This document shows positions 9,686 through 14,514 of a stretch of 14,514 bases of DNA, piece by piece; the first letter of the stretch is position 1, and each line of letters starts with the position of its first letter. Below the pieces are notes generated by a model, which was given only the letters and a program-made list of their open reading frames with translations, was not told where the DNA came from and ran no database searches. The translations under genes and the position numbers were made by a program. The stretch is from a virus (lineage: Duplodnaviria; Heunggongvirae; Uroviricota; Caudoviricetes), in the IMG/VR virus record IMGVR_UViG_2724678985_000014, one strand, 5' to 3'.

Positions 9686-10000
9686 TTAGCATTTTTTTGA
9701 CCGCGCGTTTCCGGACGTATTCTGTTCTCCTGTCCCTTTATATCGTCGGAATACCCGCCGCTCTTCAAATCCCATTCCCAACTCAGAATGTAGTCGGTTG
9801 ACCGCTTGTTTTATTTCGGTCAGGTTCACCGGTGAAACCGGAGTCCGGCGCGCCTTACGCAAACACTCTGCTCGTTTCTGTGCCGCCACTTTTCTTTTCT
9901 GGTCATCACTTAGCTGTACCATCACTTTTGCCCATCGTTCAGCTGCTCTCCGGTACAGTCCTTTTTTCTCCAGACATTCTGCCAGGTGATCATGTAGCAT
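9686..10000 (-). CDS. PerC/Pch-family transcriptional regulator (prophage-encoded PerC homolog)
   Basis: 104 aa. N-terminal L.E.LEKKGLYRRAAERWAKVM matches the PerC-family signature as I remember it (LE..GLWRRAA.RW). EHEC Pch proteins are about this length and prophage-borne (recollection). ATG at 10000 has GGAGG 6 nt upstream (rc of 10007-10011). Confidence 0.65.
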   Translation of the reverse strand: MLHDHLAECLEKKGLYRRAAERWAKVMVQLSDDQKRKVAAQKRAECLRKARRTPVSPVNLTEIKQAVNRLHSELGMGFEERRVFRRYKGTGEQNTSGNARSKKC

Positions 10001-10072
10001 AAGTAACCTCCGTTTATCTACAGACTGCCATCCTGAATTAACCGTCCTTAATAAGACAACAATAAAAAACTA

Positions 10073-10103
10073 ATTATATAAAAACAATAAAAATAATATA
10101 CAA
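10073..10103 (-). promoter_or_regulatory. Candidate sigma70 promoter for the PerC/Pch-like gene
   Basis: On the minus strand: TTGTAT (rc of 10098-10103), 17-nt spacer, TATATAAT (rc of 10073-10080), about 70 bp upstream of the ATG. The region is very AT-rich, so many hexamer matches occur by chance. Confidence 0.25.
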
Positions 10104-10463
10104 AAAAACTAAACAACAAAGAAAAGCAAATCATATCTGGCATTTTAATTGAAAGAGCAATTACCGAACAAAAGACGCTGACTATATACTCAAAACCAAA
10201 CAACAATTCTGCCAATCAGGTATCATGGCAACACACGGAATTACCATGTTTTTGCCTTCTCTGCCCATACAATACGGGCATATACTTCATACTCTATTGT
10301 AATATTTCTATCCATGCGCCCCACTCCATTTACCTGTAAATAATATTCAAAATATTTATCACAGAAATCGTTTTTGGCCATGAACTGAGCACACTATAAA
10401 GTCCGGAACTGACTCTTTGTTAAATTACCTTAACGTTACCAGTAACACCTTCGTAACAAAACA

Positions 10464-10931
10464 TCACGGTATACACTGGGTACGGATATATTCCTGTGCT
10501 CCTTCCAGTTGCTTCTGCATTGCCATCAGCCGTTCTCTGAGGATGAAATAATCCCGTTCAGCGGCTTCTGCCAGTCGGGGACCGGTTGCATTATCCACGC
10601 CGGAGGTGATGGGGGCTTTACGCAAGGAGCCTGGACAGTTGGCGTTGATCCGCAGGCGCTTACGACCAGCGGCAACATCAGCGCGCAGAGTTTCATTTTC
10701 AGCTCTCGCATCGGCTAATTCCCTCGAGTATCTGGCATCAAGTGCAGCAACATCACGCTGGCGCTGCTGCATATCAGTAATGGTTGCATTTGCCAGCTCC
10801 AGCTCACTGACTTTTTTATCGCGCTGCTCTTTGTAGGTTATGGCGTTATCACGGTAATGATTCAGCCCCAGACTAAGCGCACCACAGGCCACCAGCAGGG
10901 CAATGATGACCACGCACAGTACGCGGTTCAT
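10464..10931 (-). CDS. Rz: i-spanin Rz
   Basis: Start placed at MNRVLCVVIIALLVACGAL (ATG 10931-10929), giving 155 aa (lambda Rz is 153). Strong match to lambda Rz (NHYRDNAITYK.QRDK, L.LANA.ITDMQ.RQRDVAALDA.Y..ELADA.AEN..LR.DVAAGR.RL, SGVDNA..PRLA..AERDYF.LRERL..MQKQLEG.Q.YI...C). N-terminal TM segment. Confidence 0.88.
   Translation of the reverse strand: MNRVLCVVIIALLVACGALSLGLNHYRDNAITYKEQRDKKVSELELANATITDMQQRQRDVAALDARYSRELADARAENETLRADVAAGRKRLRINANCPGSLRKAPITSGVDNATGPRLAEAAERDYFILRERLMAMQKQLEGAQEYIRTQCIP
10526..10711 (-). CDS. Rz1: o-spanin Rz1 (lipoprotein), embedded in the +1 frame of Rz
   Basis: 61 aa. MRELKMKLCALMLPLVVSACGS... matches lambda Rz1 (MLKLKMMLCVMMLPLVVVGC...CVKPPPPPAWIMQPPPDWQTPLNGIISPSE.G): lipobox VSAC, proline-rich mature domain. 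A second in-frame ATG lies at 10696. Confidence 0.8.
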   Translation of the reverse strand: MRELKMKLCALMLPLVVSACGSTPTVQAPCVKPPSPPAWIMQPVPDWQKPLNGIISSSENG

Positions 10932-10932
10932 T

Positions 10933-11034
10933 TCACCACCAGCGTATCTGACCAATGAAATAACCGGAAGCCATAATCACAAACACCAGCCAGATAAGGA
11001 TGAACTTCCAGGTGGATAATTTTTCAGCCATCAT
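10933..11034 (-). CDS. Hypothetical 33-aa single-pass membrane peptide immediately upstream of, and coupled to, Rz
   Basis: ATGATG at 11034-11029 preceded by GGGAG (6-nt spacer). Encodes MMAEKLSTWKFILIWLVFVIMASGYFIGQIRWW with a ~20-residue hydrophobic core. Its TGA stop (10935-10933) is 1 nt from the Rz ATG (TGG TGG TGA A ATG). The longer ORF-track form (start 11151) would run through a hairpin and has no SD. Confidence 0.45.
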   Translation of the reverse strand: MMAEKLSTWKFILIWLVFVIMASGYFIGQIRWW

Positions 11035-11228
11035 TCGAATCTCCCGAATCAGTTTGCTAAAATCAAACACACTTTCTCCTTTGACTTTTCCGGAGTCAGG
11101 AAACACAAAACCCCACTTGCGGCCAACAAACGGGGTTTTACTTTTATTCACTTAGTTTTTGCCAGTTCGCAGGATTTCGTGTTATCCGCCCGTGTGAGCA
11201 AACCGCATTTTTCAGCAAAATATTCTGC

Positions 11229-11804: not shown

Positions 11805-12227
11805 TTATATACGTCCTTTAAGATAAGTCAGTCCTGGATGAAACCAGTAAGCCGGCACTTTTTTAAAGGGCGGGTTGTCAAACTCACGAAGAAGAGCCTC
11901 CCGCACAACTGCATCCTTGTCCGCACCACTGGCCAGCGCTTCAATCTCAGCAGCTATCTGCAGATATCCCATGCAACGACCAATGCACTTCATCAGCCCC
12001 TGCTTTTTATTGTTCTTCAGGTAATCAATGGCAAATTCAATGAGCACCTCACTATGCTGGTGCGATGGCGGTGTTACTTTTCCATTTTCTGAGATGGTTA
12101 TTTTCCCAGCATCACCGGATACAACAAAGGATGGCCGGTTACACTCCCATTCCAGCTCACTGAAATTATCATTATGAATACTGAAACACTCTGAGAGATT
12201 TCTGCTCATCGCGGCGTTTTTTTTCAT
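11805..12227 (-). CDS. Hypothetical protein encoded between holin and endolysin (start uncertain)
   Basis: 140-aa ORF with no TM segment or signal peptide and four Cys. The first ATG (12227) is followed directly by A8 (plus T8 at 12217-12224) and has no SD. Overlaps the upstream 49-aa ORF by 56 nt. E. coli Qin prophage has ydfR at the equivalent position (recollection), but I cannot confirm homology. Confidence 0.45.
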   Translation of the reverse strand: MKKNAAMSRNLSECFSIHNDNFSELEWECNRPSFVVSGDAGKITISENGKVTPPSHQHSEVLIEFAIDYLKNNKKQGLMKCIGRCMGYLQIAAEIEALASGADKDAVVREALLREFDNPPFKKVPAYWFHPGLTYLKGRI

Positions 12228-12321
12228 CTTCAGAAGGCATCAGCGTCGACAGTTTTTTATTCAGTTCAGCAATTTCATTTTCCAGACGACTGAAGCGCTG
12301 ATTCATTTCTTCATGGTTCAT
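12172..12321 (-). CDS. Hypothetical 49-aa charged helical peptide, translationally coupled to the holin stop
   Basis: ATG at 12321-12319 lies 4 nt after the holin TAG (GGA GAT TAG GTG ATG), with GGGGAG 8 nt upstream inside the holin 3' end. Encodes MNHEEMNQRFSRLENEIAELNKKLSTLMPSEDEKKRRDEQKSLRVFQYS. Below the ORF-track size cut-off; found by manual translation. Confidence 0.35.
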   Translation of the reverse strand: MNHEEMNQRFSRLENEIAELNKKLSTLMPSEDEKKRRDEQKSLRVFQYS

Positions 12322-12324
12322 CAC

Positions 12325-13109: not shown

Positions 13110-13205
13110 AATTTCTTTCCGTTATTGTTGACAATAAGAACTGTTTTCATTTAAAAAACCAGAGCACGAAAGTATCGTTCCTTTATTTTTTCTCCATAGG
13201 TATTA

Positions 13206-13245
13206 CCACCGCCAGCGTCCATTCCTGTCGCTGGCGGTTTTTTTT
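13206..13245 (+). terminator. Strong plus-strand intrinsic terminator (9-10 bp GC-rich stem followed by T8)
   Basis: 13209-13217 ccgccagcg paired with 13229-13237 cgctggcgg (11-nt loop), immediately followed by TTTTTTTT at 13238-13245. Oriented opposite to all neighbouring genes. No T-tract on the minus-strand side. Confidence 0.6.
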
Positions 13246-13265
13246 ATCATGCCGCAGTGTCTGTG

Positions 13266-13465
13266 NNNNNNNNNNNNNNNNNNNNNNNNNNNNNNNNNNN
13301 NNNNNNNNNNNNNNNNNNNNNNNNNNNNNNNNNNNNNNNNNNNNNNNNNNNNNNNNNNNNNNNNNNNNNNNNNNNNNNNNNNNNNNNNNNNNNNNNNNNN
13401 NNNNNNNNNNNNNNNNNNNNNNNNNNNNNNNNNNNNNNNNNNNNNNNNNNNNNNNNNNNNNNNNN
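13266..13465. other. Assembly gap: run of 200 N
   Basis: Read directly from the sequence. Interrupts the 3' end of the esterase-like gene. Because 200 is not a multiple of 3 and the true gap length is unknown, the frame across it cannot be inferred. Confidence 1.
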
Positions 13466-14514
13466 CCGTCTCCGGTCAGGGCAACGCCCTGTGGCAGTGA
13501 AGATACCGGCCAGTAAAACGCCATAACATACTGGTTCGCAGCCAGCGCTCCCGAAACCTTAAAGCGGCAGCGAATCTGCCCCCCTTTCTGTAACAGAGCC
13601 GCACCGTTGCCCGCGGCGTACTCCAGCACCCAGCTGCTTTTACCGGCTTCCTTGGTCAGCTTCACTGCCTTACCTCCGGTTCCCTCCGCATCGCTGACCA
13701 CTTCTGCCCTGCCGCCACTGGCTGACCATCCCTGTACTTTCAGGCTTCCCTCTGACTCGCTGGCAAGGTAAGAGAGCAGTGTTGTGACGCCTGTGGCTTC
13801 TGCACCGGAAGGCGATGACGGGCGCACCTCTGATACTGTCGATGATGCCCCCGCGTTTAGCGCCACTCTTCCCGCATGGCGCAAAATCGCCGTTGCCAGA
13901 CGGTCGGAAATAATCCCACGGCGTGCCCAGGCGCTGAAATGGCTCGCCCTGTCCTGTGACGTCCAGGTGGCTGAGCTGTCACGCCATTTCGAACCGTAAT
14001 ATCCGATACCCGGAATGTCCGGGTCTTCTTCCGGTTTGTTCGTCGGCACATTCACCCCATTCTCATCCGTCATGAACGGTACGAAATGGATATTCTTTTC
14101 CGTTTTGTTTTTGTAGCTGCCGTACACCGTCTGGTACGAGGATTCGTTCTTCTGCTTCCAGAAATACGTCGTGTCCCCGCATATCCAGGGAACACCGTCA
14201 GCAGAGCCACCGACGCACTGACCTGCCATATCCGCCAGGTCTGCACGGAATTTATCAACCTGCGCACCAAACTGTGCTGCGTGATTTGCCGGCGTACCGC
14301 CAAAATCAAATTCCCCCTGCATCCACACCACGGCAAACAGCACATTTTTCGGATTCTTCTTCAGTGCTGCTTTTGTTCGACCGATAAGGTCCTTATACAG
14401 CGGCTTGTCCACACCCCAGCGGGTTGAATTCTCCGAGGCACCACTCGCGTCACTGTCTGTGCCATCCGCCCCGGTGGTGAACGCTGAACCACCACGACAG
14501 CACGGAACCAGCAG
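13466..14514 (-). CDS. Partial NanS-p-like prophage esterase (sialate O-acetylesterase / SASA family); 5' end beyond the window, 3' end lost in the N gap
   Basis: The frame is open from the window edge (14514) to the gap; the ORF-track M at 14412 is a GTG inside a longer frame. Contains VVWMQGEFD, resembling the SASA-family W.QGESD block, then a long Ser/Gly/Ala-rich C-terminal region. Lying upstream of S on the late strand is where Stx and related lambdoid prophages carry nanS-p (recollection). Confidence 0.55.

Follow-up and report, generated by a model that had tools for sequence, protein, structure and literature searches.

A stretch of 14,514 nt from an Escherichia coli prophage, IMG/VR record IMGVR_UViG_2724678985_000014 (the window in what follows), carries on its minus strand, between the gene of the R endolysin and that of the Rz i-spanin, a micro-gene of about 45 codons that encodes a predicted single-helix membrane protein. 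The gene is headed by a conserved, terminator-shaped RNA hairpin, and hairpin and open reading frame (ORF) together make up a cassette that occurs in the lysis, baseplate and tail gene regions of unrelated phages. We consider the anatomy of gene and cassette, as described below, to be very probably correct, with start-site use resting on sequence. The explanation that we favour overall, tentatively and at somewhat short of an even chance, is that of a terminator-gated late cassette which would be expressed through Q antitermination and would hand its ribosomes on to Rz.

Coding evidence and extent of the micro-gene

Relatives of the micro-gene were gathered from a protein database, IMG/VR, GTDB genomes and GenBank phages. 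The original prediction, made from the letters of the window, had proposed a real protein-coding micro-gene with a single transmembrane (TM) helix, and this is borne out by an intact frame, by purifying selection and by hydropathy. The frame is open in all 157 homologous loci, the single indel among them being an in-frame 9-nt deletion. Twelve diverse pairwise comparisons by the Nei-Gojobori method yielded synonymous values (pS) of 0.39-0.82 against non-synonymous values (pN) of 0.07-0.30 for codons 14-45, with pN/pS for the micro-gene at roughly 0.15-0.4, and codons 14-45 bear clear signs of purifying selection at the protein level.

The length first proposed, 33 aa counted from the ATGATG, did not hold. 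The 12 codons upstream of ATGATG are open in every homologue, and protein-level conservation of the residues that they specify, FDFSKLIREIR plus one, reaches distant homologues, those of Pseudomonas phages among them. A library of 1.84 billion representative proteins contained 29 divergent cluster representatives, which are most strongly conserved in an N-terminal motif, D-F-S-K-L/I-I-R-E-L/I-R-x-M-x-E-K-L-x-x-W-K/R-F, with called starts 1-3 residues ahead of it. Over the same stretch, Pseudomonas phage YMC11/02/R656 shows synonymous or conservative changes and a lone indel of one codon, in frame. Moreover, the start is GTG or TTG in all 22 aligned homologues and is preceded by a Shine-Dalgarno site, which pairs at -5.9 to -9.4 kcal/mol and at -8.2 or stronger in 21 of them. 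Because of the motif shared by the 29 clusters, the substitution pattern in R656 and these start sites, the upstream 12 codons are taken to be coding, and the gene therefore extends over about 45 codons, from GTG 11070 in the window (Table 1).

The first ATG of the ATGATG is not conserved: in the 157-locus set the two positions read MM in 31 loci, VM in most and EM in a few. The second, Met14 (ATG 11031), is invariant in all homologues seen. It is preceded by an internal Shine-Dalgarno-like GGGAG, formed by the rare Arg codon CGG and the next codon GAG, and GGAG or GAGG is retained 8-10 nt upstream of Met14 in 21 of the 22 homologues, by way of CGG or AGG followed by GAG. Two in-frame starts, each with a Shine-Dalgarno sequence, are thus found in 21 of 22 homologues; their use for two isoforms is a candidate, and a 32-aa isoform from Met14 is possible. 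In one locus (L093) the 9-nt deletion abolishes the internal Shine-Dalgarno spacing and the long frame is kept, which argues that the long form would be the main product.

Annotators have also used a 72-aa reading from GTG 11151. We rejected it, as its N-terminal 27 residues traverse the hairpin and vary incoherently, and it is frameshifted by a 1-nt indel in close relatives.

Topology and annotation of the protein

The micro-protein matches PHROG 6632 at an E-value of 1.7e-29, residues 28-72 of the 72-aa reading corresponding to profile positions 1-45 of 45. This family is uncharacterised, with function unknown, and its database names are all "hypothetical". Residues 3-21 are amphipathic, with a hydrophobic moment of 0.5-0.6 and a net positive charge; they are followed by the TM helix, beyond which there are just 3-5 residues or so, and there is no lipobox. 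From hydropathy and charge distribution, the product is predicted to be a tail-anchored, single-pass inner-membrane protein with a cytoplasmic N-terminus and about 3-5 periplasmic residues. Neither the micro-protein nor three sibling small ORFs matched Pfam (at E up to 1), NCBIfam or PADLOC.

The original prediction had remarked that lambda has no gene between R and Rz. This is correct for lambda and does not apply to the present lineage, where some genomes in RefSeq and DDBJ already have a hypothetical protein of 45 or 72 aa annotated in this place (for example, WP_000459345.1 for the 45-aa form and WP_001043239.1 for the 72-aa call). The annotated start is inconsistent, giving 72, 65 or 45 aa, and the gene is uncalled in the H-19B and E2863 records, among others. 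Literature searches with peptide strings, accessions, the PHROG identifier and phrases for R-Rz genes found no relevant paper; a preprint on Pas small RNAs places these beside the holin/lysozyme operon and not in the R-Rz spacer. The gene appears to be catalogued but uncharacterised, and its leader, its mobility and the hot spot for micro-ORFs between R and Rz appear to be undescribed.

The hairpin leader

The distance from the R stop to the ATGATG is 194 nt. The original prediction had described a spacer of about 195 bp, a Shine-Dalgarno-led ATGATG and a TGA lying 1 nt before the Rz ATG, all of which are found where it placed them. The hairpin arms that it had pointed out, 11107-11114 and 11132-11139, do pair with one another; they lie within a 15-bp stem of the sense RNA that shows covariation in 22 homologues. 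Among these, 96.9% of the aligned cells are paired and 6 of 13 pairs have changed on both sides, and neither value was matched by any of 500 shuffles. The 61-nt hairpin segment of the window folds more stably than 198 of 200 dinucleotide shuffles (z -2.9), and a commoner variant of the hairpin reaches -20.7 kcal/mol. In the sense strand the aligned stem has 15 cells that are G-U and none that are A-C, so the fold has been selected in that strand.

The stem contains four consecutive G-C pairs (CCCC with GGGG), and its base is flanked by four A-U pairs and one U-G pair. It is preceded by an A-tract and then followed by UUUUGUGUUU, and in other contexts TTTTCTGTTTCT stands in place of the U-rich tract of the window. 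In shape the hairpin with its tract is an intrinsic terminator, a GC-rich stem-loop directly before a U-tract. A hairpin of this kind stands upstream of every family member examined, in all contexts, including homologues with 40-55% protein identity, in which the base AAACCCCG/CGGGGTTT is retained and the upper stem is fully compensatory. Its distance is about 25 nt to the Shine-Dalgarno sequence and about 35 nt to the start codon, and what lies upstream of it is specific to each context. A scan for consensus sigma-70 promoters found no sense-strand site between R and the micro-ORF. No Rfam family was found over the whole window at the gathering threshold, and searching the region at E up to 10 gave two chance-level hits only.

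Occlusion of the Shine-Dalgarno sequence by the leader was considered and is not claimed; it is significant in SEN34, L091 and SPN3UB and not in the window or most others.

A mobile cassette

The micro-gene is present in phage H-19B and in many phages encoding the Shiga toxins (Stx) Stx1 and Stx2, and a 361-nt query covering hairpin and ORF gave a near-full-length match in 871 of 5,426 complete E. coli genomes. The cassette is found across the genera Escherichia, Salmonella, Yersinia, Enterobacter and Pseudomonas, and the order endolysin-cassette-i-spanin recurs in combination with three or more distinct sets of families for holin, endolysin and spanin. The window and Salmonella phage SPN3UB provide a phage-21-type lysis cassette as context. 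In a second set (L089), the holin is lambda-S-like, the endolysin is of the transglycosylase type and Rz belongs to a different family; the TGA-A-ATG junction is the same there. In a third (L091 and L093), a GH19-type endolysin goes with a short pair of spanins that is unrelated.

Elsewhere the same cassette separates baseplate genes (V-to-W junctions), as it does in Rac-SA53 and SEN34, in Yersinia similis and in about 22 contigs of IMG/VR. In Pseudomonas phages and for more distant members it occurs in tail-gene moron islands beside Bro-N, KilA-N or Ant-like genes. A Q-type antiterminator is encoded by SEN34, whose cassette is located in the baseplate cluster, downstream of the antiterminator and, at about 18 kb, also of a lysin-Rz pair that overlaps; with this pair it appears to share one long late operon. 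In a further context (L250) the micro-ORF is followed by a terminator hairpin and a convergent gene, the sole case with a downstream hairpin. The PHROG 6632 family is horizontally mobile between unrelated phages, and the hairpin always accompanies the ORF.

The record PP818812.1, listed as Actinobacillus phage vB_Apl-pPE4, contains a copy of the micro-gene 91.1% identical to the query, the same value as the Rac-SA53 copy, which suggests that a phage very closely related to an E. coli prophage has been recorded with a host that one would not expect.

Small membrane ORFs in the R-Rz gap

We examined 75 loci with this R and Rz (among L169-L248). Their R-Rz gap measures 293-1426 nt and holds one to four tandem small single-helix ORFs of several families (PHROGs 6632, 4906 and 1115/4493), all with function unknown, and some gaps contain in addition an Ant-like gene of 189-231 aa. 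In 71 of the 75 the gap starts with the same hairpin. The micro-gene is one of several families of small membrane ORFs populating the R-Rz gap of this type of lysis cassette. In a generic scan of IMG/VR for the hairpin motif, about 18 of the 22 following small membrane ORFs belonged to these families or to one further family.

Examples of the ORFs are a 43-aa MSDKLIT..., a 60-aa MGKYKRILLRL... and a 28-aa MSAELIRAMAFAIRIVAIAVLVWAIRWW (L166:2520-3030 and L168:2020-2685). Homology of the short form of the micro-protein (MAEKLST...) to the 43-aa MSDKLIT... family was suspected by eye, and BLASTP gave no alignment. Two loci (L170 and L178), with gaps of 988-1000 nt and a 189-aa Ant-like gene, carry, in place of the usual hairpin after R, a different terminator-shaped one, GGCACCGTAATGGTGCC, and then TTTGTCATTTCT. 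The same leader of hairpin, U-rich tract and Shine-Dalgarno sequence also heads further families of small membrane ORFs (L269, L299, L322, L376 and L164:2671-2787), and one of these, of the K-D-A-G-I-x-G-K-x-L-A type, also follows the ORF of the micro-gene family (family A) in Pseudomonas phage R656.

The junction with Rz

The original prediction had proposed examining how far the TGA-A-ATG junction is conserved. Of the 75 loci, 61 end in TGGTGGTGA-N-ATG, regardless of which small ORF comes last. The Shine-Dalgarno-like sequence of Rz itself, GGUGGUGA, pairs with the anti-Shine-Dalgarno at -6.2 kcal/mol and lies 3 nt from the AUG; it is weak and too close to the start. The prediction had also allowed that homologues of Rz might begin further upstream. 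The ATG at 10931-10929 is the start used by annotators, and in loci with other last ORFs the Rz frame offers no other start codon a short way upstream. In cassette-free loci, the Qin prophage of E. coli K-12, taken as a reference, and the lysin-Rz pair of SEN34, the R or lysin gene overlaps Rz.

A proposed mechanism and the points against it

We propose that the hairpin would act as an intrinsic terminator in the sense transcript, so that the ORF would be reached only by Q-modified, terminator-resistant late transcription and be shielded from stray read-through in the lysogen. Translation would begin at the GTG and possibly also at the internal Met14, with its own GGAG, to give the 32-aa form. 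Ribosomes ending at the TGA would re-initiate at the Rz ATG 1 nt downstream, and the insertion would thereby restore the translational coupling of R to Rz that is present where the two genes overlap. The protein would enter the inner membrane late, most likely as a non-essential, dose-sensitive modulator of the envelope or the lysis phase and not as a partner specific to the spanins. A link to lysis is possible, and is kept in the proposal by the repeated placement of the cassette between endolysin and i-spanin in unrelated lysis cassettes; that terminator gating is combined with a membrane role in the lysis phase we hold to be possible and rather doubtful, at about one third of full confidence.

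Several results speak against this proposal. A simple terminator scan did not call the hairpin, whose maximal stem takes up the first four U residues. Essential genes lie downstream in the myoviral and Pseudomonas contexts, so that in these, too, the hairpin would have to leak or be overridden; Q was verified for SEN34 only. At least half of the independent contexts are not lysis cassettes, and the micro-protein showed no similarity to holin, antiholin, releasin or spanin families in Pfam, NCBIfam or the lysis-category PHROGs. Occlusion of the Shine-Dalgarno sequence by the leader of the window was matched by 92 of 200 shuffles, and the idea of translational damping has only the non-ATG start to draw on. 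In codons 2-13 the synonymous sites vary unusually little (pS 0.06-0.27, about equal to pN, by Nei-Gojobori), and GATTTTAGCAA is invariant in 22 of 22 sequences, that of the Pseudomonas phage included; we tentatively attribute this constraint at the nucleotide level to two overlapping initiation regions. Termination and Q read-through at the hairpin, like the use of either start, are candidates only, at the level of sequence.

Alternative explanations

The first alternative, which we judge unlikely, is that the product is moron-type cargo, an inner-membrane protein of the HK97 gp15 kind that would serve lysogen benefit or superinfection exclusion, unrelated to lysis and lodged at permissive late-operon junctions. 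Morons are reportedly defined, by Juhala et al. 2000, as independent transcription units with a promoter upstream and a terminator downstream. The cassette resembles them in being a mobile, self-contained insertion at late-operon junctions, in coding for a small protein of the inner membrane and in its movement between unrelated phages and genera. Its distant members keep company with Bro-N, KilA-N and Ant-like genes in tail-module islands, the R-Rz gap itself takes up Ant-like genes, and several diversified families of small membrane ORFs in tandem are typical of accessory cargo. It differs in its transcriptional signals: the consensus sigma-70 scan found no promoter between hairpin and ORF and no conserved one upstream in the module, and a terminator-shaped hairpin placed upstream and not downstream of the ORF would block independent expression in the lysogen. 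Usually no terminator follows the ORF, which abuts the next late gene (Rz, 1 nt downstream, in the window), and no PADLOC defence model was matched. The morons of lambdoid phages, of which HK97 gp15 is an example, have been reviewed (PMC3594210).

The original prediction had seen in the micro-ORF a 33-aa protein read from the ATGATG and probably co-translated with Rz, possibly an accessory or regulator of spanin or holin. This reading, taken as a role specific to those partners, has been weakened, and we now consider it quite improbable. It would account for the conserved junction of a stop 1 nt from the Rz ATG, for the GGGAG placed 6-9 nt upstream of the ATGs, for the invariant Met14 and for a homologue (P0047, 36 aa) called from near Met14, and the position between endolysin and i-spanin in unrelated lysis cassettes agrees with it. 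However, most relatives have GTG or GAG in place of the first ATG, the 12 codons ahead of it are conserved as protein with a stronger Shine-Dalgarno sequence and start of their own, and L093 keeps the long frame and loses the internal Shine-Dalgarno spacing. Moreover, the same cassette stands in baseplate and tail modules far from spanins, the lysin and Rz genes of SEN34 overlap with no cassette between them, and a periplasmic tail of about 3-5 residues leaves little with which to touch the periplasmic domain of Rz.

A third alternative would be an arrangement like that of type I toxin-antitoxin systems, in which a hydrophobic toxin is countered by an antisense RNA that starts inside the ORF and ends at the hairpin; this would explain the nucleotide conservation over codons 1-20. 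Type I toxins such as Hok, Ldr, TisB, Ibs and ZorO of enterohaemorrhagic E. coli are hydrophobic peptides of about 20-50 aa that consist of a single helix and are restrained in their expression at several levels. The micro-protein is like them in size and in its hydrophobic single helix, the 5' part of the ORF, including the invariant segment mentioned above, is poor in synonymous variation, and the hairpin, with an A-tract on its 5' side and a T-tract on its 3' side, has T-tracts on either strand. Just one sigma-70-like site was seen in the region, a weak plus-strand one at 10948-10977 (CTGACC, 18 nt, CATAAT), and it lies antisense inside the micro-gene. Yet such sites occur at chance level (1 found, 1.5 expected), and on inspection of the alignments its hexamers fall on codons that change in relatives, so that no conserved antisense promoter was seen. 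The 15 G-U cells of the sense-selected stem would be A-C mismatches in an antisense RNA, the antisense fold of the window is weak (-11 kcal/mol, z -1.25), no Rfam antitoxin or other family was matched, and the ORF is embedded in a late operon and coupled to the next gene. We regard this explanation as very unlikely.

Least probable of all is a functionless peptide, its ORF kept only for ribosome cover and delivery of ribosomes to Rz, avoiding Rho polarity and restoring coupling: TGGTGGTGA-N-ATG is indeed kept whichever small ORF precedes it, the Shine-Dalgarno sequence of Rz is poor and different ORF families interchange in the same gap, but the amino acid sequence is under purifying selection at the pN/pS given above, its motif is kept in 29 divergent clusters and as far as Pseudomonas phages, and some members have no co-oriented following gene, as in L250 with its terminator and convergent gene.

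Comparison with known lysis proteins

The dual-start holin/antiholin genes of lambda (S107/S105) and phage 21 (S71/S68) likewise encode small membrane proteins of the lysis cassette, and do so from two in-frame starts, each with its own ribosome-binding determinant. The micro-gene may parallel them through its two candidate starts, GTG-1 and an invariant Met14 preceded by GGAG. The micro-protein differs from these holins in having one TM segment and not two or three, in its length of 45 aa, in the lack of any holin match in Pfam or PHROG and in that the hairpin-ORF cassette also occurs outside lysis cassettes.

A functional parallel might be sought in P2 LysA, which we take to be a membrane protein with several TM segments encoded between the endolysin K and the spanin lysB, and in the Mu gp25 releasin. 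Both are non-canonical membrane proteins, encoded inside or next to endolysin and spanin genes, which modulate lysis and are not themselves holin, endolysin or spanin. The micro-protein has no sequence relationship to either. Mu gp25, of the DUF2730 family, consists of an N-terminal TM domain and a cytoplasmic domain (PMC9239132). In contrast, the micro-protein gave no DUF2730 match (Pfam, E up to 1), its TM segment is C-terminal and it is far smaller. Compared with spanins it has no periplasm-spanning domain, no lipobox and no Rz or Rz1 Pfam hit, although the neighbouring genes match both.

The lysis region and its surroundings

The whole window is a lambdoid late region extending from a nanS-type esterase through the major capsid gene, and its sequence agrees to about 95% with that of phage H-19B and those of many Stx1/Stx2 phages. 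The lysis genes on the minus strand follow the order phage-21-type holin, 140-aa ORF, R endolysin, spacer with hairpin, micro-ORF and Rz, and the coordinates are collected in Table 1. The N-terminus of the R endolysin is hydrophobic and resembles that of the signal-arrest-release endolysin of phage 21; in relatives the gene is annotated as lysozyme or R. The spacer after R varies, with a 1-nt indel among near relatives.

Table 1. Features of the lysis region of the window and of the micro-gene cassette, with coordinates in the window.
Feature	Position	Strand	Remarks
Holin, 71 aa	12325-12540	minus	Phage_holin_2_1, 8.5e-33; phage-21-type
R endolysin, 177 aa	11229-11762 (TAA 11229-11231)	minus	Pfam Phage_lysozyme, 5.2e-24
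Spacer after R	11141-11228	minus	ends with A-rich tract GAATAAAAGTAAAA abutting the hairpin
Terminator-shaped hairpin	11106-11140	minus	15-bp stem, 5-nt loop; sense RNA fold, free energy -15.9 kcal/mol
U-rich tract UUUUGUGUUUCCUGA	11096-11110	minus	from sequence; overlaps the 3' arm of the hairpin and continues past it
Shine-Dalgarno AAGGAG	11076-11081	minus	5 nt upstream of GTG 11070; duplex with 16S rRNA 3' end, -8.7 kcal/mol
Micro-gene, long form, 45 codons and TGA	10933-11070 (GTG 11070)	minus	product VFDFSKLIREIRMMAEKLSTWKFILIWLVFVIMASGYFIGQIRWW
Internal Shine-Dalgarno-like GGGAG	11041-11045	minus	9 nt upstream of Met14 codon; -7.4 kcal/mol
33-aa ORF	10933-11034 (ATGATG start 11034-11029)	minus	C-terminal part of the micro-gene
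Predicted TM helix, residues 23-42	10945-11004	minus	FILIWLVFVIMASGYFIGQI; Kyte-Doolittle 19-residue mean 2.0-2.1
Junction TGG-TGG-TGA-A-ATG	10929-10941	minus	two Trp codons, stop (TGA 10935-10933), A 10932, Rz ATG 10931-10929
Rz i-spanin, 155 aa	10464-10931	minus	Pfam Phage_lysis, 1.2e-46
Rz1 o-spanin	10526-10711	minus	embedded within Rz; Pfam Rz1, 7.9e-20

Relatives carry a YdfR-family gene between holin and endolysin, where the window has the 140-aa ORF. The latter matches only the C-terminal half of PHROG 1085 (positions 160-296 of 296) and is overlapped in a different frame by a 50-aa ORF (12172-12324); this region (11805-12324, minus strand) may represent a frameshifted or truncated gene. 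Between Rz and a PerC-family gene (9686-10000), the sequence at 10040-10220 is strongly A+T-rich and of low complexity, and on the operon strand it has no ORF except one of 55 aa with a TTG start lying within the low-complexity sequence. At 13183-14412 on the minus strand, a 409-aa ORF with a partial SASA esterase match (3-60) and a DUF6645 match looks like part of a nanS-p-type esterase, of the kind common upstream of the lysis genes of Stx phages.

Significance

To our knowledge, the lysis cassette of lambdoid and Stx phages has been regarded as fully inventoried, with holin, endolysin, Rz and Rz1 as its contents. Inside this cassette stands one gene more, conserved and under purifying selection. 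The release of Shiga toxin depends on phage lysis and, if the protein affects the timing of lysis, it would also affect toxin release.

A broader and more speculative reading, to which we would give little weight, is that hairpin-led cassettes constitute an unrecognised class of late-phase phage effectors, membrane-active and harmful peptides, each gated by a terminator, that would set the timing of lysis or seal the cell against superinfection. Its members may include the present family together with at least three other families of tail-anchored micro-proteins sharing the leader; family A may produce two isoforms from its nested starts, like a miniature holin/antiholin pair, and the class may extend over Stx phages and many other temperate phages of Proteobacteria. 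The pairing of a hairpin with a small membrane ORF provides a simple signature for finding hidden micro-protein genes in phage late operons, as well as a testable idea on why small membrane ORFs would need a gate.

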